Origin: Fibrobacter succinogenes subsp. succinogenes S85
GTDB taxonomy: Bacteria > Fibrobacterota > Fibrobacteria > Fibrobacterales > Fibrobacteraceae
Reading direction: 5' to 3'
Assembly (NCBI RefSeq): GCF_000146505.1
Contig: NC_017448.1
Location: forward strand, 2,550,001 to 2,582,000
Length of the DNA stretch: 32,000 nucleotides
Made by a program: the position numbers and the translations under genes. Shown here in pieces: positions 6,748 through 32,000 of the stretch; the first letter of the stretch is position 1, and every line of letters starts with the position of its first letter. A model generated the notes under the pieces. The model ran no database searches. It was not told the origin of the DNA and was given only the letters and a program-made list of their open reading frames with translations.

Positions 6748-6808
6748 ACAAGCCGGGGCGTTGCGGGGCGGCGAGCGCCCGCAGAGGGGGTGCTGGAAGA
6801 CTTGCCCT

Positions 6809-7840: not shown

Positions 7841-7856
7841 AAAAAGGATCATTCTC

Positions 7857-11549: not shown

Positions 11550-11654
11550 GCGAAAAAAGATAGTATTAAAACTTGACAATTTCAAAAAACGCGCTGGAGT
11601 TTTGAAGGTCTAATTGGAGTAGCGTAAACGATTACATTTTTGTATCGTAGACAC

Positions 11655-17145: not shown

Positions 17146-17201
17146 TTTGGATTGATTTGAGTCCATTTGGAGTTGAGGCGGTCTTTTGGGATTTCTAAAA
17201 T
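17146..17201 (+). promoter_or_regulatory. Phased TTTGGA direct repeats overlapping a sigma70-like promoter candidate for the plus-strand iron operon
   Basis: TTTGGAttga (from 17146), TTTGGAgttga (from 17166) and TTTGGGA (17185-17191), with starts spaced 20 and 19 bp. Candidate -35 TTGAGG (17173-17178), 17-nt spacer, -10 TAAAAT (17196-17201). ATG at 17244 with AGGAG 6 nt upstream. Confidence 0.35.
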
Positions 17202-17243: not shown

Positions 17244-18446
17244 ATGAACAAAAAACTTATTGCACTTACTTTTGCTGCAAGCCTTTTTGCCGCCTGCGGT
17301 AGCGATTCTTCGAGCAACGCAAGCTCTGATTCGGATGATTACAAACGCGAATTTGCAACTTCCATTTCGACCGGCGAAACAATGTTTATCGGCACGATGT
17401 CCCTCGATCACACGGATGATTTGGGCAAAGACTTTGTTGAAGTTGGTACGCGTGCAGGCGTTGTGTATTATGATAATGCCTTGTTCATCGCTGATTTGGA
17501 TGTTGGTTCTATTTCCCGTTATAGCCTGACTGAAAACAACAAGCTTGGCAAGGTGACTGCAAAGCTCTCTCTCCCGGGAACTTGGGTGAACCACATTTAT
17601 TTTGTCAACGATGAAAAGGCTTATTTGGGTGGTATGCTCGATTCCTTGATCATCATCAACCCGAAAACCATGAAGCAGACGGGTGCCATTGATCTTTCTA
17701 AGTACAAGGATAAGGACGCTCTCGTGGTGAGCCCGGGAACTGGCGTGATTGTTGACGGTCGCCTCTATGTAGGCCTCTTGCAGAACGTGAGCGATTATGC
17801 TACGGGTAACGAAGCTCAGGTCGCCATTATCGATGTCAAGAAGGACGAAGTCGTCGCTGTTGCTAAGGATGACCGCGTTGCTGCCGTGGGTTCCTTGGAT
17901 GACTCCCAGAACCAGGCATTTACCGTTATTGATGGCTATATCTACTGCTACAGTAATGCTTCTTGGGGCTACGCTCCGGGCCAGGTTGATGGTTTCCTCC
18001 GTATCAAGGTGGGTGAAACCAAGTTTGACAAGGATTATGCCTGGTATATCACGAAGGATGTCGCTATTGATGGCATTACAAAGAAGGACAATTTCAAGTA
18101 CCTCTCTCCGGCAACGTATCCGTCGGAAGATGGCTATGTCTATTCTTTTTTGAACGTGATGGTCGATTTGCAGCAGACTTGGACGGACATGGATAGCTAT
18201 CACAATAACACTTGCAAGCCGGTGCAGGTTGACCTTGCCAACAAGAAAATCAAGGCTTTGCCGATTGGTTATTCTTCGAGCTGGGCTAGCTACGGTAAGT
18301 ACGTTGAAGACGATGGCAACGTAATTTTTGCGGTCTCTACTGAAGAAGATGGCAATGCATACTTCCGCTATGATCCGAAGACGGATAAGGCTGAAAAGAT
18401 TGCCAAGTCTGAACAGATCCCGATGTGGATCGTTCCGCTGAAGTAA
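17244..18446 (+). CDS. Surface/periplasmic lipoprotein, probably beta-propeller-like; accessory to the adjacent TonB-dependent receptor
   Basis: MNKKLIALTFAASLFAAC|GSDSSS has lipobox FAAC followed by a Ser/Asp-rich linker. The body shows repeated beta-strand-rich segments (VVYYDNALFIAD, VIVDGRLYVG, TVIDGYIYCY, GNVIFAVS). It lies immediately upstream of the receptor. Family assignment (DUF4374/XusB-like or BtuG/YncE-like) is a guess. Confidence 0.75.
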   Translation: MNKKLIALTFAASLFAACGSDSSSNASSDSDDYKREFATSISTGETMFIGTMSLDHTDDLGKDFVEVGTRAGVVYYDNALFIADLDVGSISRYSLTENNKLGKVTAKLSLPGTWVNHIYFVNDEKAYLGGMLDSLIIINPKTMKQTGAIDLSKYKDKDALVVSPGTGVIVDGRLYVGLLQNVSDYATGNEAQVAIIDVKKDEVVAVAKDDRVAAVGSLDDSQNQAFTVIDGYIYCYSNASWGYAPGQVDGFLRIKVGETKFDKDYAWYITKDVAIDGITKKDNFKYLSPATYPSEDGYVYSFLNVMVDLQQTWTDMDSYHNNTCKPVQVDLANKKIKALPIGYSSSWASYGKYVEDDGNVIFAVSTEEDGNAYFRYDPKTDKAEKIAKSEQIPMWIVPLK

Positions 18447-18491: not shown

Positions 18492-18524
18492 ATTGTAAAA
18501 AAGTAGTTCTGGGTTTTATTGAAG

Positions 18525-20774
18525 ATGAATATTCGTAAGTTTGCTACTGTTTTTGCCGCTTTTGCGGCATTTGCCGTTATTTCTGCTTATGCGCAGGATG
18601 ACGAAGTTACTTCGTTCGAAGATTTTGATGAACCCGTCGCGGAAAGCAATGCGACTGATGCTTCCAATGGTGGCACTTCTGAAGTAAATGCTGCGGGCGG
18701 TTCCGCAAGTTCCGAAGATGTCACAAAGCTGGACTTGCTTTCGGTTGAAACGGAATCTGAAGCGGAGCAGGCTGCTATTGCAAAACAGGTTGAAACGGTT
18801 TCAACGATTGATGCCGCTGAATTGCAAAATACGAGCAAGAGCGTTTCTAAGGCGATTAATTCTGCGTCTGGCGTGAAAGTGCGCAAGTCTGGCGGAATGG
18901 GTAGCGAAGGCAAAATCAATATCCGCGGCATGGAAGGCAAGAACATCAAGGTGCTTGTCAACGGCGTTCCTGTCGAAACGCAGGGAAATTTGGGACTTGA
19001 CGATATTCCTATCGACCAGATTGCAGATATCGAAGTTTATAAGGGCTATATCCCGGCGCGTTTTGCTACAGACGGTGCGGGCGGTGCTATTAACATTGTG
19101 ACTAAAAAACGCCCGACAAATTCCGTGGATGCTTCTTATAGTTTTTCGAGTTTCAACACGCATAAAGCTTCCGTTGCCGCAAGCCATTTGATTGATAGTA
19201 TTGCAGGGGCGGCAAGCCTTGAAATTGGCGTGTCGGGTTACTTTAACCATTCCGACAACGATTATGAGTTTACTTCGCCGTACATGAAAAGCTCTACAGG
19301 TGCGGATACGAGCGTTGTTCGCGATCACGACCATTATACCTCTTACAATGTGCAGGCTTTTGCAAATTTGATGAACGCCTGGTTTGACCAAATTTCGTTG
19401 GGTGCAGGCTTTGGCGCATTTGACAAGCAGATTCAGGGCATTGAAAATCGCATTAAGGAAGCTGCTTCTGAAGGCTATAATTTTGGCGTTTCGTTCGGAC
19501 TGGACAAGAAGAATTTCTTTGCGAAAAACTTGAATTTCGGTGATAATTTTTCGTTTGGTTATGCCGAAAATAAAATCATCGATACGAGCCGAGTCCATTG
19601 TCGTAACTGGTTTAGCTGCGATACGGCGCAAAAGAATGTGGGCGAACTCGTGTCTATGGGGCTTCCGAGATTGCGCACGGTACAAGTGTATGATTTCAAT
19701 AACTTGCTGAATTTTGATTACCAGTTTATTAAGGATCAAAAGATTTATTGGAATACACTCATCAAGTACCACAAGGAAAATCCTGAAGACGATTACGGTG
19801 CTAAAATGGCCCAGTTTAACACGGCGGGGCTTCCGGGAGAAGTTTTCTCGATAACGACGGGACTTTCTCTTGAAAAAAATTTCTTTGATTCGCGTCTCCA
19901 GAATCTTCTCGGTTTCAAGTTCCATTACATGAAGGCTGAAATTTCGAATATGCCGACGAGCCTTCTGATTGAACCTGCGGTGGAATCGAACGACTACCAT
20001 GATTTTAGTTATGATGAAAGCTTGATGTTCAAGGTCGTAAAGCCGCTTTCTGTGAAGGCTTCGTATCAGCATGCTGTGCGCTTGCCGACTCCTGAAGAAC
20101 TCTTTGGCGATGGCATTCGCGTGAGCGCGGCGACAAGCCTCAAGCCCGAACAGGCTGATAATTTCAATTTTGGAATTTCTGTAGACTTGCAGGAATTGCC
20201 GCTTGTGACAAGGCTCCGCTTTGATGGCGATGTGTTTTATTCGTACTACAAAGATAGAATCCATTACATGAGTTCGGCACAGATGTCTACGCCTTACTTT
20301 AACATGAATCCGATTCGTGCCTGGGGCTACGAAGGCGACGTAAAGTTGGATGTCAATGAATGGGTTTTGCTCGGGACGAACTGGACTTTCCAGGACTTGC
20401 GTAACATGAAATATACGGCAAAACAGGGCGTTCCCAAGAAGGCTATTGTGCCTAACATTCCGCGATTCTTTATGAACTATCTTGCGGAATTCCATATTGG
20501 CGATTTGTTTAGCAAAGAAGACTTCTTGAAAGTCTGGTGGTCTGCAAATTATACGGATGAATATTTCTACGGCTGGAAGATTAGCTCCCGCCAGAGCCGT
20601 AAAATTAAAGCTTCGTTCACGCAGGATGTGGGCGTAGAATATTCCATTTGGGATAATAAACTGGGCTGGAGCTTTGAAGTTGATAACATCACGGATAGCG
20701 AATCGTTCGATAAGTTTGGTGAAAGTAAACCGGGTAGAAGTTTTGCAACAAAGATTCGCTACAGTTTTAAATAG
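18525..20774 (+). CDS. TonB-dependent outer-membrane receptor
   Basis: The ORF-track start at 18519 is TTG. The ATG at 18525 gives MNIRKFATVFAAFAAFAVISAYA|QDD. Plug region GVKVRKSGGMGSEGKINIRGMEGKNIKVLVNGVP. Long beta-barrel ending ...FATKIRYSFK. Confidence 0.9.
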   Translation: MNIRKFATVFAAFAAFAVISAYAQDDEVTSFEDFDEPVAESNATDASNGGTSEVNAAGGSASSEDVTKLDLLSVETESEAEQAAIAKQVETVSTIDAAELQNTSKSVSKAINSASGVKVRKSGGMGSEGKINIRGMEGKNIKVLVNGVPVETQGNLGLDDIPIDQIADIEVYKGYIPARFATDGAGGAINIVTKKRPTNSVDASYSFSSFNTHKASVAASHLIDSIAGAASLEIGVSGYFNHSDNDYEFTSPYMKSSTGADTSVVRDHDHYTSYNVQAFANLMNAWFDQISLGAGFGAFDKQIQGIENRIKEAASEGYNFGVSFGLDKKNFFAKNLNFGDNFSFGYAENKIIDTSRVHCRNWFSCDTAQKNVGELVSMGLPRLRTVQVYDFNNLLNFDYQFIKDQKIYWNTLIKYHKENPEDDYGAKMAQFNTAGLPGEVFSITTGLSLEKNFFDSRLQNLLGFKFHYMKAEISNMPTSLLIEPAVESNDYHDFSYDESLMFKVVKPLSVKASYQHAVRLPTPEELFGDGIRVSAATSLKPEQADNFNFGISVDLQELPLVTRLRFDGDVFYSYYKDRIHYMSSAQMSTPYFNMNPIRAWGYEGDVKLDVNEWVLLGTNWTFQDLRNMKYTAKQGVPKKAIVPNIPRFFMNYLAEFHIGDLFSKEDFLKVWWSANYTDEYFYGWKISSRQSRKIKASFTQDVGVEYSIWDNKLGWSFEVDNITDSESFDKFGESKPGRSFATKIRYSFK

Positions 20775-20789: not shown

Positions 20790-21011
20790 ATGTGTTTGTC
20801 TGAATTGCAGGAAAATCAAAAGGGTTTGATTCAAAAGATTAACGGGGATTCCCGCTTTATTTCTCGCGTGGTTTCGATGGGACTTCCGCCGAGCAGTCCG
20901 TTCTTGGTACTGCAAAATGATGGTCGCTCTCCGGTTCTTGTGTATTCGCACGATACGATGATTGCGATTAACCGCAAAGAATGCATGCAGATTGACGTGG
21001 AGATGGCATGA
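20790..21011 (+). CDS. feoA: Ferrous iron transport protein A (FeoA)
   Basis: 73-aa SH3-like FeoA pattern (LSELQENQKGLIQKINGDSRFISRVVSMGLPPSSPFLVLQND). AAGGAG RBS. ATGA overlap with feoB. Confidence 0.9.
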   Translation: MCLSELQENQKGLIQKINGDSRFISRVVSMGLPPSSPFLVLQNDGRSPVLVYSHDTMIAINRKECMQIDVEMA

Positions 21012-23038
21012 GAACGATTGCTTTGCTGGGACAGCCGAATTCCGGCAAGTCCACTCTTTTTAATGCATTGACGGGTTCGCATCAGCATGTCGGTAACTGG
21101 CCCGGAAAAACGGTGGAAAGGGCGGAAGGCTTTTTCACGCAAGGCGAAGAGCTTTATCGCGTTGTTGATTTGCCGGGTAGCTATGGGCTTACGGCAAACT
21201 CTGCCGAAGAAGTTGTGACGCGTACATACATTGAACACGGTTATGCCGACATTGTCTGCATTATCGTTGACGCTTCGCAGCTGGAACGCAGCCTTTACAT
21301 GCTTGCGGATTTTGCGGGCATTGAACGGCCTGTAATGCTTGTGCTCAACATGATGGATGTTGCAGAACAGAAGGGCAAAAAGATTGACGTCCAGAAAATC
21401 GAAAAGCTTTTGAACATTCCGGTGCTTGGCTTTACGGCGGCAAATTTGGACGACTATCCGAAATTCTTTGAAACGCTGAATCGTGCGCTTGAAAAGAAGG
21501 CGACGATTTCGTCGGATAAAATTCGTGATATTGTTGAACGCGAAGGCGAAAAGTCGCGTTTTGAAAATCTGAAAAAGCTTGAAGATTTGATTGCATCTCT
21601 GAAATTTGACAATCGCGAAAGATTCTGGGTTGCATCAAAGCTTTTGGAAAATGATTCGCTTGTGCGTTCGGAAGTCGAAACGGCGGTGACTCCGGAACAT
21701 TGGAAGCAAATCAAGGAAATTCTGGATGCTGAAGGTGCTGAAGGCGGACTTTTGACGGGTGAAGCGAAGTACCGCTTTGTCTCTGAAGTTCTCCGTGATG
21801 CGTCTGAAGGCGAAGAAAAGTCGATGAAGCTTTCTCGCTTTGATAAGATTGCGACGCACCGCATCTGGGGTAAAATTGTCGCATTCTTTATTCTCGTGCT
21901 TACGCTTGCCGTGAGCATGATGATTGCAGTCCCGATTATTGCAAGCTGCTTTGGACTCCAGCATGTTGCAGAACCGCTTGTTGTTCAAATGTGCGAAAAG
22001 TTTGGCTGGTGGCCTTCTGTAGCGTCGTTCGTCAATGGCGTTATCATTGGCGGGCTTTCTGTGACTGTCGCCATGATGAGCTTTGTCTTTGCGATTCTCG
22101 TGACATTTGGCTTGATGGAAGATACGGGCTACTTGGCGAGATCTTCGTATGTGTTTGACTCGTGGCTTTCAAGGCTTGGTTTGCATGGCAAGGCGTTTAT
22201 GCCGCTGTTTTCTGGGCTTGCTTGCACGGGCGGCGCCGTTTGCGGTACGCGCGTGCTAGATACACGTGGACAGCGCTTGTTTGCGATGGTGCTTTTGTGG
22301 TCCATTCCGTGCGGCTCAAAAGTTGCCGTAGTGCTTTTCCTTGCTTCCGTTTTCTTTGGCTCGGCGGCTCCGCTGTTTGGCTTGGTTTATGTAGCGATGA
22401 TTTTTGCATCGTTCTTGCTTTCGTCTAAACTTTTCGGAAATAAGCTGATGCCGGTGAATGAACGCGTGGGCATGATTATGGAACTTCCGCCGTACCACAA
22501 GCCACATTGGAAAATTTTGCTCAAGACGGTTGCTCGCAATGTCTGGGCGGTTTTCAAGAAGGCGATTGCGGTCATTTGGTTTGTGTCCCTTTTGTTCTGG
22601 CTTATTTCGTATTCGAAAGATGGAAATGTGGAACATAGCGTGCTTTACACCATTGGCAATGCGATTGAACCGTTTACGCAGATTTTCGGTATGCGCTGGC
22701 AACTGTTTATTTCGTATATCGGCGGAATCTTTAGCAAGGAAGCGTCGCTTGGCGTGATGAGCGTTGTCTTCTCGAGTACAACTGATGCGTTCTCGCTTGT
22801 TGCCCGTAATGAGGCGGGTGCAAATCTTGGCGAAATGATGCGTGCCGTGGTGACCATCCCGGAAGCTCTTGCATTTATTTTTGCATCCATGTTCAATATC
22901 CCTTGTGTACTTGCGATGGGTACAACGTATCGTGAAACGCATTCCCTTAAGTGGATGCTTGCGATTGCGGGTTATTACTTTGCGATTTCGCTTGGTTTGG
23001 CGTTTATCGTTTACCACATTGCGCTGTGGGTGCTTTAG
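21008..23038 (+). CDS. feoB: Ferrous iron transport protein B (FeoB)
   Basis: N-terminal G-domain MRTIALLGQPNSGKSTLFNALTG...DLPGSY...LNMMD, followed by a polytopic membrane domain. 676 aa. Confidence 0.95.
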   Translation: MRTIALLGQPNSGKSTLFNALTGSHQHVGNWPGKTVERAEGFFTQGEELYRVVDLPGSYGLTANSAEEVVTRTYIEHGYADIVCIIVDASQLERSLYMLADFAGIERPVMLVLNMMDVAEQKGKKIDVQKIEKLLNIPVLGFTAANLDDYPKFFETLNRALEKKATISSDKIRDIVEREGEKSRFENLKKLEDLIASLKFDNRERFWVASKLLENDSLVRSEVETAVTPEHWKQIKEILDAEGAEGGLLTGEAKYRFVSEVLRDASEGEEKSMKLSRFDKIATHRIWGKIVAFFILVLTLAVSMMIAVPIIASCFGLQHVAEPLVVQMCEKFGWWPSVASFVNGVIIGGLSVTVAMMSFVFAILVTFGLMEDTGYLARSSYVFDSWLSRLGLHGKAFMPLFSGLACTGGAVCGTRVLDTRGQRLFAMVLLWSIPCGSKVAVVLFLASVFFGSAAPLFGLVYVAMIFASFLLSSKLFGNKLMPVNERVGMIMELPPYHKPHWKILLKTVARNVWAVFKKAIAVIWFVSLLFWLISYSKDGNVEHSVLYTIGNAIEPFTQIFGMRWQLFISYIGGIFSKEASLGVMSVVFSSTTDAFSLVARNEAGANLGEMMRAVVTIPEALAFIFASMFNIPCVLAMGTTYRETHSLKWMLAIAGYYFAISLGLAFIVYHIALWVL

Positions 23039-23244
23039 GACTTCTTCGAAAAACCCAGACTACAATAGAAGCGGGTATGGCGTGCCAATTGTTGATTCAT
23101 GCGGTGCGTCATATTTTTTTTATCTCGCTTTGTTCAAAATTTTAAAAATGTTATCCATGTCTAATTGGAGCTTTTTAAAACCGTTTAGAGTAGAATATAA
23201 GGGGTGTTCTGACTTATTTTTGACCGTCCGATTGTGTGGTTCAA

Positions 23245-23955
23245 ATGACTCAGAAACGAATTTATTCAGCTTTGTCTTTCAACAAGGCCTTTTACATAGG
23301 GCTTGCCGTTGCAATCCTTATCCATATCGCCACACTTTTAAACCCGTATTTCAAGAAACAAGAAATCTCGACGCAACGCCCTGATAGCCCCGTAATGCAT
23401 GCGGAAAAGGTCTATATCGCGCCCCCTCCGCCTCCAGAAGCGCCTCCGGTCGTGAAAAAGGTCGTTCGTGCTAAAATTATCCCGAAGGTCGTAGAAAAAC
23501 CGGTCGAAGAACAGCCTCCTGAACCGGAACCAATCCCGAAACCGGTAACAGAAACGGCACCAGTCGCAGTTGCTGAACCTGTTGTCGAAGCGCCGCCTCC
23601 CGCGCCCCCCGTGGTCAAGGAACCGCCCAAACCTTCGGCAGATTCTGTGAAAATGGTGACCCGCACGTACTTGCGCTCGCTCAAAAAGCAACTGGAACAG
23701 ATCAAGGATTACCCTGCGACGGCTAAGCGCCTAAAGCAGGAAGGCACGGTACGTGTGCGGTTTACCATCCTCGCCGATGGCAAGATTGAACAAATTGAAG
23801 TTTCGGAATCAAGCCGTTATTCGTCGCTGGACAATAGCGCCTTGGAAGCCGTTGCCAACATGGGCAAATTTCAACCTATTCCAAAACTTTTAGAAAAAGA
23901 ACGCTGGAGAATCGAAATTCCAATCCAGTACAAACTTAATGCAGGGAGATCGTAA
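23245..23955 (+). CDS. tonB: TonB-family energy-transducer protein
   Basis: The ORF-track start at 23236 is GTG. The ATG at 23245 gives MTQKRIYS... with one TM (FYIGLAVAILIHIATLL). Pro-rich spacer APPPPPEAPPVVKK...EQPPEPEPIPKPV. C-terminal TonB domain YPATAKRLKQEGTVRVRFTILADGKIEQIEV. Confidence 0.85.
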   Translation: MTQKRIYSALSFNKAFYIGLAVAILIHIATLLNPYFKKQEISTQRPDSPVMHAEKVYIAPPPPPEAPPVVKKVVRAKIIPKVVEKPVEEQPPEPEPIPKPVTETAPVAVAEPVVEAPPPAPPVVKEPPKPSADSVKMVTRTYLRSLKKQLEQIKDYPATAKRLKQEGTVRVRFTILADGKIEQIEVSESSRYSSLDNSALEAVANMGKFQPIPKLLEKERWRIEIPIQYKLNAGRS

Positions 23956-24521
23956 TGAACTTCATTCTCGACTTTGTCAAACAGGGCGGTTACATCGGCT
24001 ACATCCTGGTTGCACTGAACTTTATCGGTTACGCCATCATTATCTGGAAGGTGATTTCGCTAATTGTCTTTAATAAAACCGTGCAGCCGCGTTTGACAGA
24101 TAAAGTTATCCATCGCGTGGTGACCTGCAATACCGACCATCACATCATTACAGAAAGTATTCGCACTGAAATCGGCCTTGCGTTCTCTCCGCTCACAAAG
24201 GGCCTTACGACAGTCGAAAACATCGCATCTATTTCTCCTATGCTTGGCCTCCTCGGTACGGTGGTGGGCATTTTCAACGCATTTACGGTGATAGCGGCCT
24301 CGGGCCTTGATGATCCATCCGCTTTTGCGACGGGCATTAAGTTTGCTCTCGTGACAACGGTCCTTGGGCTTGTGGTCGCTATCCCGCACGTGATTGCGTT
24401 CAACTACCTGAACGCCCGCATGGAGCAGGAACAGGACGAAGTCGAAAACCAGGTGCTTTTGCACTTGGGCAAGACTTTGCAGGAACGTGACGCAAAGAGA
24501 ACGGAGTCTCGCAATGGCTAA
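23955..24521 (+). CDS. exbB: MotA/TolQ/ExbB proton-channel family protein
   Basis: 188 aa with three TM segments. Conserved SPMLGLLGTVVGIFNAF region. The start overlaps the tonB stop (TAATG). Confidence 0.9.
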   Translation: MNFILDFVKQGGYIGYILVALNFIGYAIIIWKVISLIVFNKTVQPRLTDKVIHRVVTCNTDHHIITESIRTEIGLAFSPLTKGLTTVENIASISPMLGLLGTVVGIFNAFTVIAASGLDDPSAFATGIKFALVTTVLGLVVAIPHVIAFNYLNARMEQEQDEVENQVLLHLGKTLQERDAKRTESRNG

Positions 24522-24906
24522 AAGACGTCGTCGCATATCGCTGGACATGACGCCACTAATTGACTGCGTGTTTTTGCTGCTTGTCTTTTTCTTGGTGACG
24601 TCTGTCTTTAAGCAGGACAAATCCGTCCTCAAGCTTTTGTTGCCTGAGACTTCTAGCGAAGTCAAGCAGGAAGTTTCCGAAGGATTCTTTATAGAACTTT
24701 CAGAAACCGAAATCGCCATCAACGGTGAATTAGCGACAGTTGAAATTTTGAAGAACAAGAGCGCTGCCGTGCAAAACAAGAAAGCGCCGGTGGCCTTGAA
24801 AATCGACAAAAAGACTCCTTACGAAAAAGTCGCAGAAGTCTTGGATGTTCTCCAGATGGAAAAGATTTACAACATACAATTCGTCAATGAATTAAAAAAG
24901 GAGTGA
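24514..24906 (+). CDS. exbD: ExbD/TolR biopolymer transport protein
   Basis: The ORF-track start at 24487 is GTG. The ATG at 24514 gives MAKRRRRISLDMTPLIDCVFLLLVFFLVTS, the canonical ExbD N-terminus. 8-nt overlap with exbB (ATGGCTAA). Confidence 0.9.
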   Translation: MAKRRRRISLDMTPLIDCVFLLLVFFLVTSVFKQDKSVLKLLLPETSSEVKQEVSEGFFIELSETEIAINGELATVEILKNKSAAVQNKKAPVALKIDKKTPYEKVAEVLDVLQMEKIYNIQFVNELKKE

Positions 24907-24910
24907 GAAG

Positions 24911-27286
24911 ATGTCACGTATTCGAATAAATATCGAAAAGGTGAACGAAAAATTTGAAAACTTCGCAAGGTTCCTGATTTCGCACAGGGCCTTGCTTCTT
25001 GTTTCGTTTATAGCCTTGCTTGCGATTTCTATCGTGGGCATGAAAAAGATTTACGTCGAAGCCTCATGGGATAGCTACTTTATCGAAGGCGACCCGATGC
25101 TTGTCGAAACGGACAAGTTCAAGGAAACGTTCGGCAATGACTATTTCGTGGGCGTGATGGTCGAAACGGAACAGTCTGTTTTAACGCCGGAAAACTTGAA
25201 GCTTTTGCGCGAGCTTTCGAACGAATTGCGCGATAGCCTCTCGTATTCTGACGGTAAGGCAACATCGATTGTCGATTTGGAATACATGCTCGGTACGGAC
25301 GAAGGCATGGAAATCGTGCAGATCGTGCCGGAAGAAATCCCGACAGATGCAGCGGGCCTTGCCGAAATCGAAAAGCGCCTCGCCGCAAAGCCGGAACTTG
25401 CGAAAAAGCTCATCTCTAAAGACCGCAAGCAGGCCTTTATTAACGTGAAGCTCCGCCCGTTCCCGGAAGATTCCGTGTGGAAGGCTGAAGGCGAAGCTCA
25501 GGGCAAAAAGGCCGAAGCTCCGGACATGAAGACGGGCCGCGAAACCTCTGAAATCATCGCCAAGGAAAAGTACGCTCCGCTGCACCCTCTTGCAACGGGT
25601 ATGCCTTACTTGAGCCATCAGAAGCTCAAGTACATCGGCGAAGAAATGAGCCGTATTTTCCTCATTACGATTCTTTGCTCCATCATCGTGATGTTCCTTG
25701 TGACGCGTTCGCTCCGCGGAATCGTTTCTCCGCTGATTACCACGTTCGCGGGCGTCATCATGACTTTTGGCTTGGTCGGCTATCTCGGTCTTTATATGGA
25801 TGCGACCAACATCATGGTGCCTGTCATCTTGGCGTTTGCCGTCTCCATTGCGTATAACATTCATATCCATTCTTTCTTCCGCAAGAATATGATGCTCACG
25901 GGCAAGCGCAAGGAATCTGTGCTTTACGCCATGAAAGAAACCGGCTGGTCAGTGCTGTTCTCGGGCCTCACGACGATTGTGGCACTTCTGTCGTTCCTGT
26001 CGGTGATGCTTAAGCCTATTCGCTCCGTGGGCATCCTCTCTTCTATTGCTGTTGGCTTCATTCTCCTTGTGGCTCTTACAGTTTCGCCGATTCTCTTGAG
26101 CTTTGGCAAGGACAAAAAGCCGAACGCCAAGGTGCTTGAAAAGGGTGATACGCGTATGGGCATCATCCTCAATAATCTCGGTCAGTTTGTTCTGACTCAC
26201 GGAAAGCCGATTGCAATCATCTTTGCTGTGATTACCGCAATTTCGATTTATGGCGTCACCAAGATGGAACCCGCTTTTGACGTGGAACGCACTATGGGCC
26301 GCAAGGTCGAATACGTGAACAAGATGCTCTACGTTGCCGAATCTGAAATCGGTAGCTTCTACTCTTACGACTTGGTGATTGACTTTGGCGAAAATGACAA
26401 GGCTAAGGAAGTTGATAATCTCAAAAAGCTGGAACAGCTGCAGGATCACGCCCAAAAGTATCCGCTGACAAAACGTTCCACTTCCATTCTCGACATCTTG
26501 AAGGATTTGGACCGCACCTTGAACGAAAATCGTCAGGAAATGTACGCTATCCCGGAAACGGAAGAACAGGTGGCTCAGCTCTTGCTCTTGTACGAAAATG
26601 CCGGCGGTTCCGAAGCAAGCTACTGGATGGATTACGATTACAAGAAGCTCCGCTTGATGGTCGAAATCTCGAGCTACAACTCCAACGAACTCCAGAAGGA
26701 AATTGAGGACTTGCAGAATTTCGCACGCGAACTTTATCCGAATGCGAAGGTGACAGCTGTGGGTAACTTGCCGCAGTTTACCGCTATGCAGCAGTATTTG
26801 GAAGTAGGCCAGATGACATCCTTCCTCATCTCTGTCGTGATTGTGGCGGTGCTCTTGATGATTGTCTTCGGCAGCGTCCGCACGGGTCTCATCGGCATGA
26901 TTCCGAACATCGCTCCGGGTATTTTCGTGGGCGGCTATCTCGGCTTTAGCAACATCCCGCTCGACATGATGACGGCTACGCTTATCCCGATGATCATCGG
27001 CCTTTCCGTGGACGATACGATCCATTTCATCAACCATGGCCATGTGGAATTTGACCGTTGCAAGGACTACAAGGATTCCATTCTCAAGGTGTTCCGTGCT
27101 GCAGGACCTGCTCTTGTAATGACAACGATTATCATGGTGGCGACATTTGCGGGCTTTACGACTTCGCAGGCCACGCAGATGTTCAACTTTGGCTTTGTGG
27201 TGTTTGTGGGCCTTGTCTCGGCTTTGCTTGCCGACCTGTTCGTGACACCGCTTTTAATCAAGAAGTTTAAAATTTTCGGAAAATAG
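24911..27286 (+). CDS. RND-superfamily transporter of the MMPL/HpnN-like type (791 aa)
   Basis: Topology 1 TM + large periplasmic loop + 5 TM, repeated twice. Hydrophobic blocks include IFLITILCSIIVMFLV, VSPLITTFAGVIMTFGLVGYLGL and LIPMIIGLSVDDTIHFINH. It starts 4 nt after the exbD stop. Confidence 0.88.
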   Translation: MSRIRINIEKVNEKFENFARFLISHRALLLVSFIALLAISIVGMKKIYVEASWDSYFIEGDPMLVETDKFKETFGNDYFVGVMVETEQSVLTPENLKLLRELSNELRDSLSYSDGKATSIVDLEYMLGTDEGMEIVQIVPEEIPTDAAGLAEIEKRLAAKPELAKKLISKDRKQAFINVKLRPFPEDSVWKAEGEAQGKKAEAPDMKTGRETSEIIAKEKYAPLHPLATGMPYLSHQKLKYIGEEMSRIFLITILCSIIVMFLVTRSLRGIVSPLITTFAGVIMTFGLVGYLGLYMDATNIMVPVILAFAVSIAYNIHIHSFFRKNMMLTGKRKESVLYAMKETGWSVLFSGLTTIVALLSFLSVMLKPIRSVGILSSIAVGFILLVALTVSPILLSFGKDKKPNAKVLEKGDTRMGIILNNLGQFVLTHGKPIAIIFAVITAISIYGVTKMEPAFDVERTMGRKVEYVNKMLYVAESEIGSFYSYDLVIDFGENDKAKEVDNLKKLEQLQDHAQKYPLTKRSTSILDILKDLDRTLNENRQEMYAIPETEEQVAQLLLLYENAGGSEASYWMDYDYKKLRLMVEISSYNSNELQKEIEDLQNFARELYPNAKVTAVGNLPQFTAMQQYLEVGQMTSFLISVVIVAVLLMIVFGSVRTGLIGMIPNIAPGIFVGGYLGFSNIPLDMMTATLIPMIIGLSVDDTIHFINHGHVEFDRCKDYKDSILKVFRAAGPALVMTTIIMVATFAGFTTSQATQMFNFGFVVFVGLVSALLADLFVTPLLIKKFKIFGK

Positions 27287-27295
27287 GAGGATTCT

Positions 27296-28069
27296 ATGAA
27301 AATTTCAAAAATTGCTGCGACGCTCGTTGTCGCTCTCAGTGCAATGTCTATGGCTCAGACGAATGCCCGTGACATCATGGTCAAGGTCAAAAACCGCCCG
27401 GATGGTGACACGCGCTCTTCCTCGATGGAAATGAAGCTCGTGAACAAGAGCGGTAACACCCGTGTCCGCAAGATTACTTCGTATGCAATGGACGTGGGCG
27501 AAGATACCAAGACCATCATGTTCTTCCTTTACCCGAATGATGTGAAAGGCACGGGTTTCTTGACCGTGAACTACGATGACGTCAACAAGGAAGACGACAA
27601 GTGGCTCTATCTCCCGGCTTTGAAGAAGACACGCCGCATCAGCGGAAAGAGCTCCAAGACTGATTACTTCATGGGCTCCGACTTCACATACGATGATATC
27701 GGCAAGCGCAATGTCGATGAAGATACGCACAAGCTCTTGCGCGAAGAATCGGCAGACGGTTTCGATTACTACGTCGTCGAATCGACTCCCAAGAAGGAAG
27801 GCGAAATCTTCTCCAAGAAACTCGTCTGGATCCGCAAGGATTGCGATGTCGTCGCCAAGGTCGAATTCTACGACAAGCTCGGCAAACTCCATCGCCAGAT
27901 GGTTTCTTCGGACATCAAGAAGGTTGACGGTTTTTGGACGGTCGGCAAGATGGAAATGAAGAACGTGCAGACGGGACATTCTACAGAACTCCTTTTCCTC
28001 GATCCGAAATACAACATCCAGCTCGATTCCAAGATTTTCTCTGTGAACAAGTTGGAACGTGGGTTGTAG
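27296..28069 (+). CDS. LolA-like periplasmic protein (outer-membrane lipoprotein-sorting protein family)
   Basis: Signal peptide [20 protein letters not shown]|QTN with no lipobox Cys. Family-typical blocks [33 protein letters not shown] and [18 protein letters not shown], 9 nt after the RND stop. Confidence 0.8.
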
Positions 28070-28097
28070 TTAGTAGACAGTAAAAACTCTGCTTATT

Positions 28098-28123
28098 GTC
28101 ATGCCCGCCATTGCGCGGGCATC
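28098..28123 (+). repeat. REP-like palindromic element (GTCATGCCCGC...GCGGGCATC)
   Basis: GTC + atgcccgc (28101-28108) / loop cattgc / gcgggcat (28115-28122). It has the same GTCAY-plus-palindrome layout as the elements at 4794-6836. No U-run follows. Confidence 0.65.
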
Positions 28124-28141
28124 TCCCATTAAGGAGGAAAA

Positions 28142-29365
28142 ATGTTTAAAAAAACGGTTTTCGCGTTATTGTCCGCAGCGATCGCCTTGTCCGTACACGC
28201 CCAGGAAGACGAGCTTTCTCTGCAGCTGAACGGCTTTGTGGATTCGTATCACGCGCTGCAGGTGGAACATCCGCATAAGATTATGTCTTCGCGGACGCGC
28301 CTCCGTCTAGAAATGCGTGCGAATTACGGCGAGGCTTCGCTTTTCTCGAGCGTCAATCTCGCGTACAACAGCCTCATCAAAGACCAGTCGGGAGCGTTCC
28401 TTCGCGAAGCGTATTTCGATTACGCCGGCAAATATCTTGAAGTCAAGGCGGGTCGTCAAATTATCACGTGGGGCGTTGCCGATGGGCTTCGCCTTACGGA
28501 CTTGATTTCGCCTATGGACTACACGGAATTCATGGCGAACGATTACGACGACATTCGCGTGCCGGTGAACGCCATCAACCTCAAGTATCCTGGCGAAAGC
28601 TTCTCCGCCGAACTCGTCTTTGTGCCTGTTCCGGAGTACTTCGTGATGCCCTCGGGCGAGGACAATCCGTGGACGATGCCGTTGCCTGCGAATACGAGCA
28701 TGGACTTGAGCGGTACTCCTGAAAAGCGTCTCAAGAACAGCGAAGTGGGTGGACGTCTGCGTTTCTTCCTGGAGAATCTCGATTTCTCGCTTACGGCGCT
28801 GCGCACTTTCAATAAGTCTCCCGTAACGATTGCAAGCTTCAATCCGGAAACGAAATCTGCCGTGATTAAGGGCATCTACGAGCCGATGAACGTTGTCGGT
28901 GGCGATGTCTCTATCCCGGCGGGTGAGCTTGTGATTCGTGGCGAGGTGGCTGCGTATTTTGGCGAGCCCATTGCCTTGAAAAATTCTCGCGATTACTGGC
29001 TGCGAAAGACGTTCAACGCATTGCTCGGTATTGACTGGTACGCGGGTGATAACTGGACGTTCATGTTCCAATACATGCACAAGGTCGTCATGGATTACCG
29101 CGAAGTGTTGGGAACGGAACAGAATACGTCCATGCTTACGGCTCGCATCTCCAAGGAACTCCTGAACAATACACTCAAACTTTCTGTTTATGGGATGTAC
29201 GACGTCGATAATGTCGGTTTCTATATCCGTCCGGCGGCAGATTACCTGCTGAGTGACCAGATTACGGTCTCGTTGGGCTCTGATATTCTTGGCGGGAGGC
29301 GCGGTACGTTTAAAACTTACAAGAAAAATACGCAAATATGGGTAAAAGGTAAGTATTTCTTTTAG
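28142..29365 (+). CDS. Outer-membrane beta-barrel protein (DUF1302-like or alginate-export-like)
   Basis: Signal peptide MFKKTVFALLSAAIALSVHA|QED. GRQIITWGVADG motif. Alternating-hydrophobicity strands throughout. C-terminal beta-signal KGKYFF. AAGGAGG RBS. Confidence 0.7.
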   Translation: MFKKTVFALLSAAIALSVHAQEDELSLQLNGFVDSYHALQVEHPHKIMSSRTRLRLEMRANYGEASLFSSVNLAYNSLIKDQSGAFLREAYFDYAGKYLEVKAGRQIITWGVADGLRLTDLISPMDYTEFMANDYDDIRVPVNAINLKYPGESFSAELVFVPVPEYFVMPSGEDNPWTMPLPANTSMDLSGTPEKRLKNSEVGGRLRFFLENLDFSLTALRTFNKSPVTIASFNPETKSAVIKGIYEPMNVVGGDVSIPAGELVIRGEVAAYFGEPIALKNSRDYWLRKTFNALLGIDWYAGDNWTFMFQYMHKVVMDYREVLGTEQNTSMLTARISKELLNNTLKLSVYGMYDVDNVGFYIRPAADYLLSDQITVSLGSDILGGRRGTFKTYKKNTQIWVKGKYFF

Positions 29366-29401
29366 TGGAGTCACTTGCCGTATGGGATGAAAATGCCTAA
29401 A

Positions 29402-29469
29402 TTTAGACAGAACTAAGTTAGATTAACCTAATAAAATTGGTTTAGACTAAAATACTTGGTTCGGTCTAA
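29402..29469 (+). promoter_or_regulatory. TTAGAC-type repeats upstream of the AraC gene (candidate operator)
   Basis: tttagac (29402-29408), ttagat (29418-29423) and tttagac (29441-29447), plus inverted gtctaa (29464-29469). TTAGAC-N16-GTCTAA forms an inverted repeat ending 19 nt before the ATG. Confidence 0.3.
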
Positions 29470-29488
29470 TTTTTGAGAGAGTGAGATT

Positions 29489-30430
29489 ATGTTAAAGCCC
29501 GTACCCGATAAGAATCTGATTCAAATCCAGAATACAGATTTCTTTTCTCATTATATGTTGCAAAATAAAACTGGGACGGGACATCTACTAACGTATAACG
29601 TATTGCCTGGGCTGCAAGTCTTCTACAGCAATTTCCACCTCAAGGAATTTACTTTCAACTTTGAAAATCAAGGCAAGAACTTGATTGTGCTTCATTGCCA
29701 TAACGGCAGCGCAGAATGGCTGAATTCGGATTCCATGCCGAAATCCATGGAAGAGAATGGCCTCGTTTTGCTCGACAATATGCCGGCCAGCAAGACGTTC
29801 AAATTCCCGGTGCATTGCTACCATGGCATTGCGGTCGTGTTCTCGATGGACCGCTGCCAATGTGAACTCATGAATATGTTTAAGGCGGTCGGTGTTGACT
29901 TTGCAGCCCTTATCGAAAAAATCCAGCCGCTTACACTTCCGCTGAAACTCCCGTCTAGCGAGCACGTGAGCCATATTTTCTCGGAACTCTACAGGCTTCC
30001 GAAAAACATCCGCTTGCCGTATTTCAAAATCAAAGTGCTCGAGCTTATCCTCTTCTTGAGCCGTCTCGATTCCGAAGCCAAGTACGAAACGGCGGCGCTG
30101 ATCCCAAGCGCTTACAAAGGCAAAATGGAACTCCTGCGCGAAATTCTCCGCGAAAATGTCGAAGAGCATTTGACGCTTGAACAGCTTTCCAAGCAAATCG
30201 AAATGAGCCCGACGCAAATGAAAAAGTATTTCAAGCTGGCGTACGGCGATTCCATTTATTCGTACCTCAAGACGTACCGCATGAAAAAAGCCACCCAGCT
30301 TTTGCTAGATGGCAAATTCAATGTCGCCGAAGTCGCAAGCCGCGTGGGCTATACAAACTCCAGCAAGTTCGCGCAAGCATTCAAGGAATACACCGGCTGC
30401 TCGCCCAAGGAATATAAGAACAAGACCTAA
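29489..30430 (+). CDS. AraC-family transcriptional regulator
   Basis: C-terminal double HTH LTLEQLSKQIEMSPTQMKKYFKLAYGDSIYSYLKTYRMKKATQLLLDGKFNVAEVASRVGYTNSSKFAQAFKEYTGCSPKEYK. I do not recognise the N-terminal sensor domain. Confidence 0.9.
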   Translation: MLKPVPDKNLIQIQNTDFFSHYMLQNKTGTGHLLTYNVLPGLQVFYSNFHLKEFTFNFENQGKNLIVLHCHNGSAEWLNSDSMPKSMEENGLVLLDNMPASKTFKFPVHCYHGIAVVFSMDRCQCELMNMFKAVGVDFAALIEKIQPLTLPLKLPSSEHVSHIFSELYRLPKNIRLPYFKIKVLELILFLSRLDSEAKYETAALIPSAYKGKMELLREILRENVEEHLTLEQLSKQIEMSPTQMKKYFKLAYGDSIYSYLKTYRMKKATQLLLDGKFNVAEVASRVGYTNSSKFAQAFKEYTGCSPKEYKNKT

Positions 30431-30457: not shown

Positions 30458-32000
30458 TTAAGCGTCGTCTTTTTCCGTGTCGCTTTCGGCGTGCTTCTCT
30501 TCGTGCGTTTCTTCATCACGGCTAAGCGGTCTATGTTCGGCAATCTTGATTTCACGCTTGTTGATGTACATATTCTTATCGGCCTTGTTGAACGTCTCTT
30601 CAATCGTCGTTCCCTTGGCGTAAGATGCAATTCCAAGTCCGCAAGCAATTGAAATCTGTTTCCACGGGAACGAAGCGTTTTTAGTCAAGTCCATGCTTTC
30701 CTTGAGTTGTGTCATAAGCTCGGAGTGATTTTCTAAATCCCTGCCCGTAAGGACTACCAGGAATTCGTCGCCGCCAATTCTAAAGACGGGGCTGTGCGTG
30801 AAAATCTGGCAAATCAGCTTGCAGGAATTCACAAGATAGGCGTTTCCGTTTTCATGGCTGTAAGTGTCGTTGATTTCCTTGAGGTTGTTCGTGTCGAGAA
30901 CTGCGATGCCGTACGATTTCACCTCGCCTCTTTCAATGCGGTCCTTGAGCTCGGAAAGGTAGCTGTCATAAGCCATCTTGTTGCGCACGCCTGTGAGCGA
31001 GTCTTGGAAGGCGAGTCCCTGCATTTGCTTCATGTGCTGGATGATGTGGAATTTTGCGGCCGCAAAGCTCTTAGCAAGTTCTCCAATTTCATCATTCTGC
31101 TTGATGTTGAATTCGGCGTTCATGTCACCGGTAATCATCTTCTTTGCTTCTTTCGTGAGCTCCTTGAGCGGCTTTGTAATGCTTCTCGAGAAGAAAATCG
31201 TGATGGCGGTTGTGAATGCAAGGAGGAGTAAAATAAAGATGATGCTTTGTCTGATGTGCCTATTTCGCTGGGCGTTGATTTCAAGAATCGGTGCTACAGT
31301 AACTAGGTTCATCCCGTTAATAAGAGGTGTTGATAACATAATCTGGTCTTCTTCTGGCTTGAATGTTAGACCGTTGGGGAGGGTGGGGTGGTAAAGCACA
31401 AAGCCCTCACTATCTTCCAAGAAGGCAAAACCGCTTTGCATAAAGTGCACCTGTGAAAGCTGCTTGGTCATTCCGTCAAAGTCAATGTCGATGCCTGCGA
31501 CGCCAATTTCCTTGTTGTCCAGGAACATCGGAATAACGTAAGAGATGATATAAGCGTTGATGTTCTTGTTGTAGTAAGGCGGAAGCCAAATCGGATTTCC
31601 TGTCATGATCGGCTTGTAGTACCATCCTACATGTTCTACATCCGATGGGCTGTATTGCTTGATGTTTGTAGTAGCGTGGTTTTCGAACATCCCGTTGGAT
31701 GGATTTCGGACGAGGTAAACTCCTTCGCTGGAGTGTGTGATGTCCGGGTTGAATCTGACAAATACGCTTTTTGTGTTAGAGAGGCTGCTTATGGTTGACT
31801 TAAGACGTTCTCTAATGCCATTGATGTTTCTAGACAAATTGTTAGGGTTCGTCAAAAAGGTTGAATCGTCCTTGATCTGGGAAAAAACGCCCGCAGCCGC
31901 AGCCATCGTGTATTTTTCGTGGGATTCAAACAGATTGTTCAGCTTGGCAGCTTCGCTGTTGGCCTGGTCCCGCATGTATTGCATGGAGTTGCGCTGAGTC
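30458..32000 (-). CDS. Diguanylate cyclase with periplasmic Cache-like sensor, HAMP and GGDEF domains; the N-terminus probably lies beyond the right edge
   Basis: TM segment IIFILLLLAFTTAITIFF, HAMP (SITKPLKELTKEAKKMITGD) and the GGDEF active site RIGGDEF. The frame stays open from the track start (31984) to position 32000. The expected N-terminal TM helix preceding a Cache domain is missing, so the gene is likely 5'-truncated by the window. Confidence 0.88.
   Translation of the reverse strand, partial: TQRNSMQYMRDQANSEAAKLNNLFESHEKYTMAAAAGVFSQIKDDSTFLTNPNNLSRNINGIRERLKSTISSLSNTKSVFVRFNPDITHSSEGVYLVRNPSNGMFENHATTNIKQYSPSDVEHVGWYYKPIMTGNPIWLPPYYNKNINAYIISYVIPMFLDNKEIGVAGIDIDFDGMTKQLSQVHFMQSGFAFLEDSEGFVLYHPTLPNGLTFKPEEDQIMLSTPLINGMNLVTVAPILEINAQRNRHIRQSIIFILLLLAFTTAITIFFSRSITKPLKELTKEAKKMITGDMNAEFNIKQNDEIGELAKSFAAAKFHIIQHMKQMQGLAFQDSLTGVRNKMAYDSYLSELKDRIERGEVKSYGIAVLDTNNLKEINDTYSHENGNAYLVNSCKLICQIFTHSPVFRIGGDEFLVVLTGRDLENHSELMTQLKESMDLTKNASFPWKQISIACGLGIASYAKGTTIEETFNKADKNMYINKREIKIAEHRPLSRDEETHEEKHAESDTEKDDA

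Follow-up and report, generated by a model that had tools for sequence, protein, structure and literature searches.

The window analysed here is a 32,000-nucleotide (nt) stretch of the Fibrobacter succinogenes subsp. succinogenes S85 genome (contig NC_017448.1, positions 2,550,001 to 2,582,000), and its subject is a series of six close-packed, same-strand genes (Table 1): the motor genes tonB, exbB and exbD, followed by genes for an inner-membrane RND pump of the MMPL branch, a periplasmic LolA-like carrier and an outer-membrane barrel of the DUF1302 family (the last three are called the triad below). A prediction made earlier from the letters of this stretch (the original prediction) had described the six genes with their coordinates and junctions, had guessed the families of the triad proteins and had noted that these supply one part per envelope compartment. 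Each coordinate and junction was confirmed in the sequence, all six proteins scored above the Pfam thresholds in a Pfam scan, profile searches returned the three guessed families, and the layout across the envelope holds. In the reading that we prefer, to which we assign a probability of about 0.5, the six genes would be an iron-regulon operon that joins a TonB motor with a proton-driven export route, with a chelator-type molecule as the preferred cargo.

Table 1. Features of the window; positions are counted from its first nucleotide.
Feature	Position	Strand	Remarks
ZIP/ZupT-like metal permease	10761-11585	-	Pfam + NCBIfam
Secreted or lipoprotein alpha/beta-hydrolase	11640-12836	+	Pfam + NCBIfam
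S-adenosylmethionine (SAM) methyltransferase	12907-13506	+	Pfam + NCBIfam
Two ABC half-transporters, exporter-type fold	13581-17064	-	Pfam ABC_membrane + ABC_tran; divergent from lipoprotein
Lipoprotein, probably XusB/DUF4374 family	17244-18446	+	lipobox LFAAC; partner of adjacent receptor
TonB-dependent receptor, siderophore type	18519-20774	+	Pfam Plug + TonB_dep_Rec barrel
feoA-feoB ferrous iron transporter	20790-23038	+	Pfam FeoA, FeoB_N, Gate, FeoB_C
Likely intrinsic terminator of feoAB	23073-23121	+	hairpin + T8 right after feoB stop
tonB operon promoter region (predicted)	23123-23244	+	conserved blocks GTTAYCC-N-GTCTAATTGGAG, TTTAGAGTAGAA, TTATTTTT
tonB	23245-23955	+	N-terminal transmembrane segment, Pro-rich spacer, TonB_C domain
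exbB	23955-24521	+	MotA/TolQ/ExbB proton channel, 3 transmembrane segments by hydropathy; Pfam PF01618 101.6 bits
exbD	24514-24906	+	Pfam PF02472 84.3 bits
MMPL/HAE3-type RND inner-membrane transporter	24911-27286	+	791 aa; Pfam MMPL (PF03176)
Periplasmic LolA-like carrier, LolA3 type	27296-28069	+	257 aa; PF17131
Intercistronic G+C-rich hairpin	28101-28122	+	8-bp stem ATGCCCGC / GCGGGCAT, 6-nt loop
DUF1302-family outer-membrane beta-barrel, short form	28142-29365	+	407 aa; PF06980
AraC-family regulator	29489-30430	+	Pfam HTH_18 75 bits; directly downstream of barrel gene

The stop codon of tonB (TAA, 23953-23955) and the start codon of exbB (ATG, 23955-23957) are fused as TAATG with a 1-nt overlap at 23955, and exbB and exbD overlap by 8 nt (ATGGCTAA at 24514-24521, which contains both the exbD ATG and the exbB TAA). 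Four nucleotides (gaag) separate the exbD TGA (24904-24906) from the ATG of the RND gene at 24911, and 9 nt lie between the RND stop (TAG, 27284-27286) and the ATG of the LolA-like gene at 27296, with an AGGAGG at 27285-27290 that overlaps the stop codon. The start of tonB is the ATG at 23245, kept in relatives, and not the GTG at 23236. The close packing of the six genes is kept across about 30 species-level Fibrobacter genomes and is thus more than a product of chance.

The last gap of the unit, 72 nt between the end of the LolA-like stop codon (28069) and the barrel ATG (28142), contains the hairpin at 28101-28122; its fold energy is -26.2 kcal/mol (z = -4.3), and in five of the 11 related loci (L009, L025, L026, L029, L030) a hairpin with the stem kept and a variable loop stands at the same position. 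Since it has no T-run it is not an intrinsic terminator, and the suggestion that it is a dispersed repetitive extragenic palindrome (REP) was rejected, as a single copy was found in the 32-kb window; it is a local intercistronic structure. Scans for sigma-70 promoters and for terminators gave counts not above those of shuffled sequences and flagged nothing within the six-gene unit (Fibrobacter promoters may not fit that consensus), and an Rfam scan of the whole window produced 0 matches at gathering thresholds.

Upstream of tonB, a hairpin with a 14-bp stem followed by U8 stands at the end of feoB (minimum free energy -20.2 kcal/mol, with a modest z of -1.4; it was missed by the simple terminator scan), and between this hairpin and tonB are blocks that include the motif GTCTAATTGGAG at 23159-23170 and TTTAGAGTAGAA at 23184-23195. 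These blocks, which lie within the 120 nt before tonB, are kept in 13 Fibrobacter loci, both where feoB stands upstream and where a divergent ABC pair does. The feoB hairpin with its T8 and the conserved blocks before tonB therefore indicate that tonB probably heads its own transcription unit, separate from feoAB.

The organism is a rumen Fibrobacter, and several metagenome-assembled genomes of F. succinogenes and Fibrobacter sp. match it with 97-99% identity. Gene neighbourhoods were surveyed in 80 species-representative loci encoding relatives of the pump (31 from Fibrobacter and 49 from Bacteroidales), onto which the homologues of the window proteins were mapped. The order MMPL - LolA-like - DUF1302 is present in all 49 Bacteroidales loci as far as the contig reaches (52-57% identity) and in 26 of the 31 Fibrobacter loci; in the remaining Fibrobacter loci either an ABC/AraC/lipoprotein block stands between MMPL and the LolA-like - DUF1302 pair or the contig is cut. 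Wherever the three genes are contiguous, in these 80 species-level loci from two phyla, their order is invariant. Adjacency of the triad to tonB-exbBD, the point on which the original prediction had asked for such a survey, was upheld for Fibrobacter only: in Fibrobacter all evaluable loci (27 of 27) have tonB-exbBD no further than 10 kb from the triad (the other four of the 31 are truncated by the end of the contig or locus), but tonB, exbB or exbD was found within that distance in none of the 49 Bacteroidales loci, with which seven Pfam- or RefSeq-annotated contexts agree.

Within Fibrobacter a motor gene abuts a triad gene in 25 loci, and the linkage holds in at least five gene orders: (1) tonB-exbBD-triad-araC, the window type; (2) feoBA, divergent from triad-tonB-exbBD; (3) MMPL, then further on the ABC pair and AraC, followed by XusB-like - LolA-like - DUF1302 - tonB; (4) triad-feoAB-receptor-XusB-like with exbDB further on; and (5) XusB-like - receptor - triad, further on feoBA, then tonB-exbBD. 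That the linkage persists through such rearrangement argues for selection on co-expression. The similarity of the modules is mosaic among loci L009-L039, which suggests, at the level of sequence, recombination between cluster variants: in L015-L022 the pump is 88-91% identical to that of the window and the LolA-like protein, DUF1302 and TonB only about 55%, while in L036 the pump is 64-67% identical and yet the barrel and ExbB are near the window type. In most window-type loci (L009, L013, L025-L030, L036 and L038, at about 4600-8200) the lipoprotein-receptor-feoAB block is replaced by another, paralogous ABC pair (about 290-350 bits to the pair of the window), which stands divergently upstream of tonB.

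A promoter motif connects these genes further. Sites of the form GTCYAWTTGGAG occur in the window at 11608-11619, 17161-17172 and 23159-23170 (three copies, 0.03 expected); the copy at 11608, between the ZIP gene and the hydrolase-methyltransferase pair, is an exact GTCTAATTGGAG, and that at 17161, upstream of the lipoprotein-receptor-feoAB unit, has two changes. The 11-mer GTC[CT]A[AT]TTGGA (GTCYAWTTGGA) was found 29 times in about 683 kb of Fibrobacter sequence, where about 1.3 copies are expected, each just upstream of, and oriented towards, a gene of this set: tonB (8), feoA (7), MMPL (4), the lipoprotein (4), the LolA-like protein (3), a P-type ATPase unit (2) and the receptor (1). The Bacteroidales loci contain one copy in 1.1 Mb; the motif is specific to Fibrobacter. 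TTTGGA(G)-like repeats are often seen 10-20 nt away from it. The motif, common to the tonB, feoA, receptor/lipoprotein and triad units, is direct sequence evidence that in Fibrobacter a single regulon, with a putative link to iron, unites the triad with the TonB motor, with Feo and with the receptor.

Of the motor proteins, TonB (Pfam TonB_C 74.6 bits; TIGR01352 73.9 bits, above its cutoff) has a transmembrane (TM) segment at residues 15-33, with the spacers PPPPPEAPP and EPEPIPKP visible. The NCBIfam TolQ model scores exbB higher than the ExbB model does (76.6 versus 55.4 bits, both far under their cutoffs); an assignment to ExbBD rather than to TolQR is favoured by the order of the genes, by the partner with a TonB_C domain and by the receptor nearby.

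The pump matches Pfam MMPL in two stretches (146 bits; cutoff 20.5), and its best NCBIfam model is TIGR00921 (HAE3), with 192.5 bits against a cutoff of 351.9, aligned over residues 25-783; scores for the HpnN, MmpL3 and BstA equivalogs of NCBIfam were all far under their cutoffs. Its hydropathy fits the predicted 12 TM segments and two large periplasmic loops, each of ~190 aa (about 46-241 and 453-637), after TM1 and TM7, and Asp297 in TM4 as well as Asp701/Asp702 in TM10 are invariant in 13 homologues. Among solved chains, HpnN (the closest) and MmpL4 come nearest (E about 1e-8 to 1e-7). These features fit a proton-driven RND transporter with small HpnN/MmpL-like periplasmic domains and not one with an AcrB-type docking domain, as far as can be judged from the sequence. 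HpnN and MmpL4/MmpL5 belong to the same MMPL/HAE branch of RND proteins and have similarly small periplasmic domains, but their sequence similarity to the pump is very low (E 1e-8 to 1e-6, over one TM bundle), and neither a LolA-like protein nor a barrel accompanies them. Many Fibrobacter loci (L003, L015, L016, L020, L021, L027, L037, L039; e.g., L015 4418-6775) encode a second, diverged MMPL paralogue; it scores about 460 bits to the window pump and usually stands beside a ZIP permease without a LolA-like or DUF1302 partner of its own.

With HpnN as the closest solved pump, and with a LolA fold, which shields acyl chains, next to it, the triad might instead carry an envelope lipid or lipidated molecule to the outer membrane, for envelope remodelling or vesicle formation under iron or nitric oxide (NO) stress. 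For the related DUF1302/DUF1329/BNR/RND clusters, whose mutants are pleiotropic, Price et al. proposed the export of a cell wall component, and DUF1302 and DUF1329 proteins were detected in outer-membrane nanopods (10.1101/072470). The cassette, however, is accessory, often mobile and multicopy in P. intermedia (PMC10434189), which would be unusual for core envelope biogenesis, the groove of Flavobacterium johnsoniae LolA3 was reported to be more polar than those of LolA1/2 (PMC11885536), and a lipid cargo leaves the tight linkage to receptors and metal importers unexplained. We regard lipid export as unlikely.

The LolA-like protein matches PF17131 with 218.9 bits (cutoff 30) and DUF1329 partially (60 bits). 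Its N-terminus is a Sec signal peptide that ends AMSMA/QT without a Cys, i.e., it is secreted without a lipobox, as predicted. Of solved structures it matches LolA3 of Porphyromonas gingivalis (LolA3-PG; PDB 9TP6, 315 bits, about 60% identity), and also 3BK5, 4Z48 and 3BUU. With the canonical LolA/LolB pathway the window protein has in common that it is periplasmic and has the LolA fold, an open beta-barrel, but it falls in another Pfam family (PF17131) and is encoded with an RND pump instead of LolCDE, no genes of which were found in the window by Pfam scans.

The original prediction had named the surface lipoprotein at 17244 as one possible cargo, and a dedicated lipoprotein-sorting branch that takes such proteins to the outer membrane would agree with the LolA fold, with the database name "outer membrane lipoprotein-sorting protein" as well as with the lipoprotein gene that, in some Fibrobacter loci, stands immediately upstream of LolA-like - DUF1302. 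Lipoproteins are nevertheless extracted by LolCDE and not by RND pumps, most triad loci have no adjacent lipoprotein gene, and the lipoprotein at 17244 probably belongs to the XusB family and is usually the partner of the receptor beside it. The 2.3 Å crystal structure 9TP6 revealed a 13-strand sheet with a hydrophobic groove in LolA3-PG, the orthologue of the window protein, which lacks both the diagnostic Arg of LolA and the Leu of LolB and binds LolB very weakly (PMC13103446). In F. johnsoniae, deletion of lolA3, or of all five lolA/lolB genes, leaves gliding, the type IX secretion system and surface lipoprotein display unaffected (PMC11885536). Lipoprotein sorting was judged the weakest of the rival explanations and is highly improbable, also for the lipoprotein at 17244.

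The barrel protein scores 56.2 bits with PF06980 (cutoff 23.2), and the match spans positions 142-431 of the 541 in the profile, which indicates a short form; its homologues likewise carry PF06980. Its signal peptide ends LSVHA/QE, and the motif GRQIITWG and the C-terminus KGKYFF (with a C-terminal Phe) are present as predicted. An AlphaFold2 (AF2) model (predicted local distance difference test, pLDDT, 75; predicted TM-score, pTM, 0.70) has about 18-20 strands and is porin-like. A Foldseek search with the model returned general porins and AlgE (probability 1.0, TM 0.45-0.58), AlgE having the highest TMq shown (0.58), and a sequence search of the PDB gave no match. DUF1302 proteins have no solved structure; they were predicted to form AlgE/Occ-like barrels that dock DUF1329 (PMC13499233), and published AlphaFold-Multimer work supports the contact of DUF1302 with DUF1329 (PMC6394551, 10.1101/072470, PMC13499233). 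The most conserved motif of the barrel (residues 104-137, GRQIITWGVADG...DYDD) is placed by the model on a long loop that follows strand 5 and is itself poorly modelled; this loop is a candidate for a lumen or gate. A plug domain is absent from the AF2 model, and no TonB-box-like segment was seen at the mature N-terminus.

The barrel bears on whether the triad could be an inward or TonB-coupled route, in which haem or a lipophilic siderophore would pass through DUF1302, the LolA-like protein and MMPL and/or the ABC pair while TonB-ExbBD energises the outer-membrane step. Such a route is suggested by the translational coupling of tonB-exbBD to the triad in two opposite orders, sometimes without a receptor within 10 kb, by the one locus with the order XusB-like - LolA-like - DUF1302 - tonB and by the ABC pair, the nearest solved homologues of which are the importers YbtPQ and IrtAB. 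MmpL3 and MmpL11 have been proposed as mycobacterial haem importers. Against it stand the missing plug and TonB box, the lack of motor genes near all 49 Bacteroidales triads and the fact that characterised RND pumps export. The P. gingivalis literature includes a speculation on alternative haem delivery (PMC13096392), and we consider import by this route quite improbable. Direct energising of the triad by TonB, as the original prediction could be read, is not supported, the Bacteroidales orthologues having no tonB-exbBD within 10 kb. That TonB-ExbB-ExbD may in Fibrobacter be a working part of the triad, i.e., of a route energised by the proton-motive force through the plug-less DUF1302 barrel and the LolA-like shuttle, either for export across the outer membrane or for import of a hydrophobic iron chelate or haem via an RND protein, is in our opinion very doubtful. 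If true, it would be a TonB-dependent transport architecture without the fold of a TonB-dependent receptor.

The triad is already known as a cassette of Bacteroidota, the function of which is unsolved, and in this respect the original prediction, which took it for a candidate uncharacterised trans-envelope system, has to be corrected. Orthologous triads with the same gene order and 50-60% identity occur in the operons of P. gingivalis (PG1178-80), Prevotella intermedia and P. nigrescens (MMPL 50% to P. nigrescens), and their ABC pair (PG1175-76 in P. gingivalis) is orthologous to the ABC pair of the window (685-705 bits). PG1178-81 is an annotated, repeatedly reported and defined transcription unit (a porin-like hypothetical protein, a "lipoprotein-sorting protein", MMPL and TetR), the LolA-like member of which has been crystallised (9TP6, PMC13103446). 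Under iron depletion PG1175-81 is up-regulated 13-136-fold and three TetR-ABC-ABC-MMPL-LolA-like-hypothetical operons of P. intermedia 40-223-fold (PMC10434189), and in haemin-limited chemostats the four most over-expressed genes were TetR, LolA-like, hypothetical and MMPL (log2 7.4-8.1; PMC10470040). The PG1178-81 unit shares its regulation with hmu and flavodoxin (PMC12119571, PMC13096392). It also reacts to NO stress, with an 84-fold change, and to the loss of hemH, and was termed an uncharacterised transport system (PMC11018363, PMC13096392, PMC12119571). The iron induction of these orthologues, together with the constant nearness of tonB-exbBD in Fibrobacter and the promoter motif common to tonB, feoAB and the receptor, bears out the predicted link to an iron locus.

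The Bacteroidota operons differ from the window in being headed by TetR, often on mobile elements, and in having no tonB-exbBD within 10 kb, whereas the window has no TetR, an AraC gene downstream, the Fibrobacter-specific motif and tonB-exbBD in the same predicted transcript. What is new here is the predicted fusion with tonB-exbBD into one operon across the genus, together with the regulon motif and a cross-phylum gene set that, from its sequence context, ties the cassette to metal uptake. In the Bacteroidales loci this gene set comprises orthologues of the window-type ABC pair (500-775 bits; in 21 of the 49 loci, adjoining the triad in 13), ZIP (in 11 of the 49) and a receptor with an XusB-like lipoprotein (in 8 of the 49), and a methyltransferase recurs too. 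Contiguous operons were found in Prevotella sp. khp7 (TonB-dependent receptor-lipoprotein-MMPL-LolA-DUF1302; L058) and in B. helcogenes (triad-ABC-methyltransferase-ABC-receptor), and one human-gut triad locus also holds a Fur gene.

Other Bacteroidales copies consist of TetR and the triad alone on mobile elements. In L006-L008 and L091-L092 (Parabacteroides distasonis and a human-gut Bacteroidales contig) TetR-triad is inside integrative, mobilisable or conjugative elements (with integrases, MobC and TraG), which indicates that the cassette is horizontally mobile. Such copies, one of which stands beside a classical pump of the membrane fusion protein-AcrB type, would suit a general efflux of hydrophobic toxins (xenobiotics, bile, plant compounds) in which the iron link is secondary, e.g., stress cross-talk, and the response of the operon to NO besides iron (PMC11018363) points in the same direction. 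A model for it is AmeABCD of Castellaniella defragrans, the deletion of which lowers monoterpene tolerance and Nile Red efflux (PMC6394551); with the DUF1302/DUF1329/BNR/RND clusters of Pseudomonas, Shewanella and Kangiella, which are cofit in several Proteobacteria (10.1101/072470, 10.1101/2020.07.04.188060), it shares with the window the joint encoding of an HAE3 RND protein, a periplasmic protein of the LolA superfamily and DUF1302. Mutant phenotypes have been published for related four-gene cassettes (PMC6394551, 10.1101/072470), a further point against an unrecognised system.

These clusters differ from the window, however, in having four components, including a BNR/COG4447 propeller, a DUF1302 of ~600 aa and a DUF1329 of ~450 aa, and in their links, which are to LuxR regulators and to the metabolism of terpenes, fatty esters and aromatics instead of metal uptake. 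The triad is not a cassette of this type, since Pfam scans found no BNR/COG4447 open reading frame (ORF) and no full-length DUF1329 in the window, where the periplasmic protein has 257 aa. Toxin efflux also leaves aside that metal genes (the ABC pair, ZIP, the receptor with its lipoprotein, feoAB, Fur) recur by the triad in two phyla, that a promoter motif is common to the triad, feoAB and receptor units in Fibrobacter and that its induction under a shortage of iron or haemin ranks with the strongest of the genome (PMC10470040); we think it rather unlikely.

In our preferred reading, tonB-exbB-exbD-MMPL-LolA-like-DUF1302 would be a single operon with its own promoter, probably followed by the AraC regulator, and the cassette would belong to an iron (metal) acquisition regulon with feoAB, the ZIP permease and the ABC pair that has YbtPQ as its nearest solved homologue. 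TonB-ExbB-ExbD would most likely power the siderophore-type receptor with its XusB-family lipoprotein 3 kb upstream, and TonB would be co-regulated with the triad and not mechanically coupled to it. Driven by protons, the MMPL/HAE3 pump would take a small molecule of amphiphilic or hydrophobic nature from the periplasm or the inner membrane and pass it to the soluble LolA3-type carrier with its hydrophobic groove. From there it would reach the plug-less DUF1302 barrel, to leave through the outer membrane or to be inserted into it. As cargo we prefer a metal chelator, or what remains of one without its iron (an apo-siderophore, its hydrolysis product or a porphyrin); such a remnant would have to be expelled once iron has been freed in the periplasm and Fe2+ taken up via FeoAB. 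The structure of the genes, their families, the conserved linkage and the common promoter motif are shown, as is, in published work, the induction of the orthologues by iron or haem limitation; we infer the direction of transport, the order of hand-over, the service of TonB to the receptor and not to the triad, and the cargo.

The chelator-efflux model is analogous to pyoverdine recycling and to the pairing of MmpL4/5 with IrtAB. PvdRT-OpmQ recycles pyoverdine from the periplasm and offers a functional analogy for expelling an iron-free chelator after periplasmic release of the iron, but it is an ABC-type tripartite pump with a membrane fusion protein and a TolC-like duct and has no homology to the triad. 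In mycobacteria, MmpL4/5 works with IrtAB in the export, recycling and import of mycobactin, and the pairing of MmpL with an IrtAB-type ABC transporter parallels the linkage of MMPL with the ABC pair in the window. A siderophore-type receptor with a lipoprotein of probable PF14298 type, an ABC pair with YbtPQ as its nearest solved homologue and an AraC-family regulator, as they flank the window triad, recall XusAB of Bacteroides thetaiotaomicron and FyuA-YbtPQ-YbtA; the similarity is at the family level only, the window has neither XusC/PepSY nor biosynthetic genes, and the XusAB and yersiniabactin sets themselves are without an RND/LolA-like/DUF1302 triad.

Several points weigh against this reading. 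No experiment on any member of the cassette has identified a substrate or a direction of transport, and the statement of the original prediction that the triad has no assigned substrate still holds, also for PG1178-80, AmeABCD and the DUF1302/DUF1329/RND relatives. P. gingivalis is said to use no siderophores (PMC13227078), so that a siderophore cargo is not universal, and the 84-fold NO response (PMC11018363) means that the induction may reflect general envelope or redox stress. The iron-responsive expression comes from orthologues in Bacteroidota. Many Bacteroidales TetR-triad copies on mobile elements have no metal genes nearby and resemble a drug or toxin pump, and what AmeABCD and the Pseudomonas relatives are connected with is not metals but terpenes and fatty esters. 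Several Fibrobacter loci, finally, lack a receptor within 10 kb of the operon MMPL-LolA-DUF1302-tonB-exbBD, so that TonB may not serve a neighbouring receptor only.

The cassette is widespread in gut and rumen Bacteroidales and in Fibrobacter, and in the periodontal pathogens P. gingivalis and P. intermedia few genes respond more strongly to starvation for iron or haem; independent genomic evidence for its part in metal acquisition now comes from the Fibrobacter loci. The hypotheses are narrowed to four: efflux and recycling of a chelator or porphyrin, efflux of toxins, export of a lipid, and uptake. Tractable organisms together with the crystal structure 9TP6 open the way to ligand identification. 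If the cargo is an apo-chelator, the cassette would represent a class of pump new to anaerobes, one that recycles siderophores or porphyrins.

Among the flanking genes, the lipoprotein at 17244 had no match in the local Pfam copy even at E = 10, although homologues 91-99% identical to it carry the precomputed PF14298.14 (XusB); its AF2 model, from an alignment limited to homologues at least 91% identical, is unusable (pLDDT 47), and a sequence search of the PDB gave marginal propeller matches only (E 0.01). The best NCBIfam model of the receptor is the myxochelin receptor MxcH (339 bits, under its cutoff). The nearest solved half-transporters of the ABC pair are YbtPQ (6P6I; 377 bits), IrtA (305) and MsbA (256). 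A firm assignment of the pair as an importer was rejected, since NCBIfam ranks MsbA-like exporters first whereas among the half-transporters of the PDB YbtPQ and IrtA rank highest. Taken at their longest, the ORFs of the two ABC genes share 176 nt (15301-15476); the gene at 13581-15476 (TTG start) probably starts later, and its first 85 residues have no ABC_membrane match.

Downstream of the barrel, every window-type locus that reaches far enough has the AraC gene where the window has it. The interval before it (29380-29488) contains TTTAGAC twice, TTAGAT and an inverted GGTCTAA, which may be autoregulatory sites; the heptamer TTTAGAC is not enriched across the window (6 found, 3.2 expected). 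A dCache-HAMP-GGDEF diguanylate cyclase (30458-31984, minus strand) is convergent with araC and keeps this place in six window-type loci. Across the locus the GC profile stays flat (0.45-0.49), and a genomic island was rejected on its composition.

At the other end of the window, the minus strand encodes a complete type I restriction-modification system at 1254-6321 (hsdR 1254-3599, hsdS 3603-4754, hsdM 4876-6321). Three ORFs, at 27-1097 (plus strand), 7785-8330 and 8330-9121 (both minus strand), which would encode 356, 181 and 263 aa, had no Pfam match even at E = 10. A protein with ATPase_2 and DUF234 ("archaeal ATPase") is encoded at 9355-10758 on the plus strand, between the LysR region and the ZIP gene.

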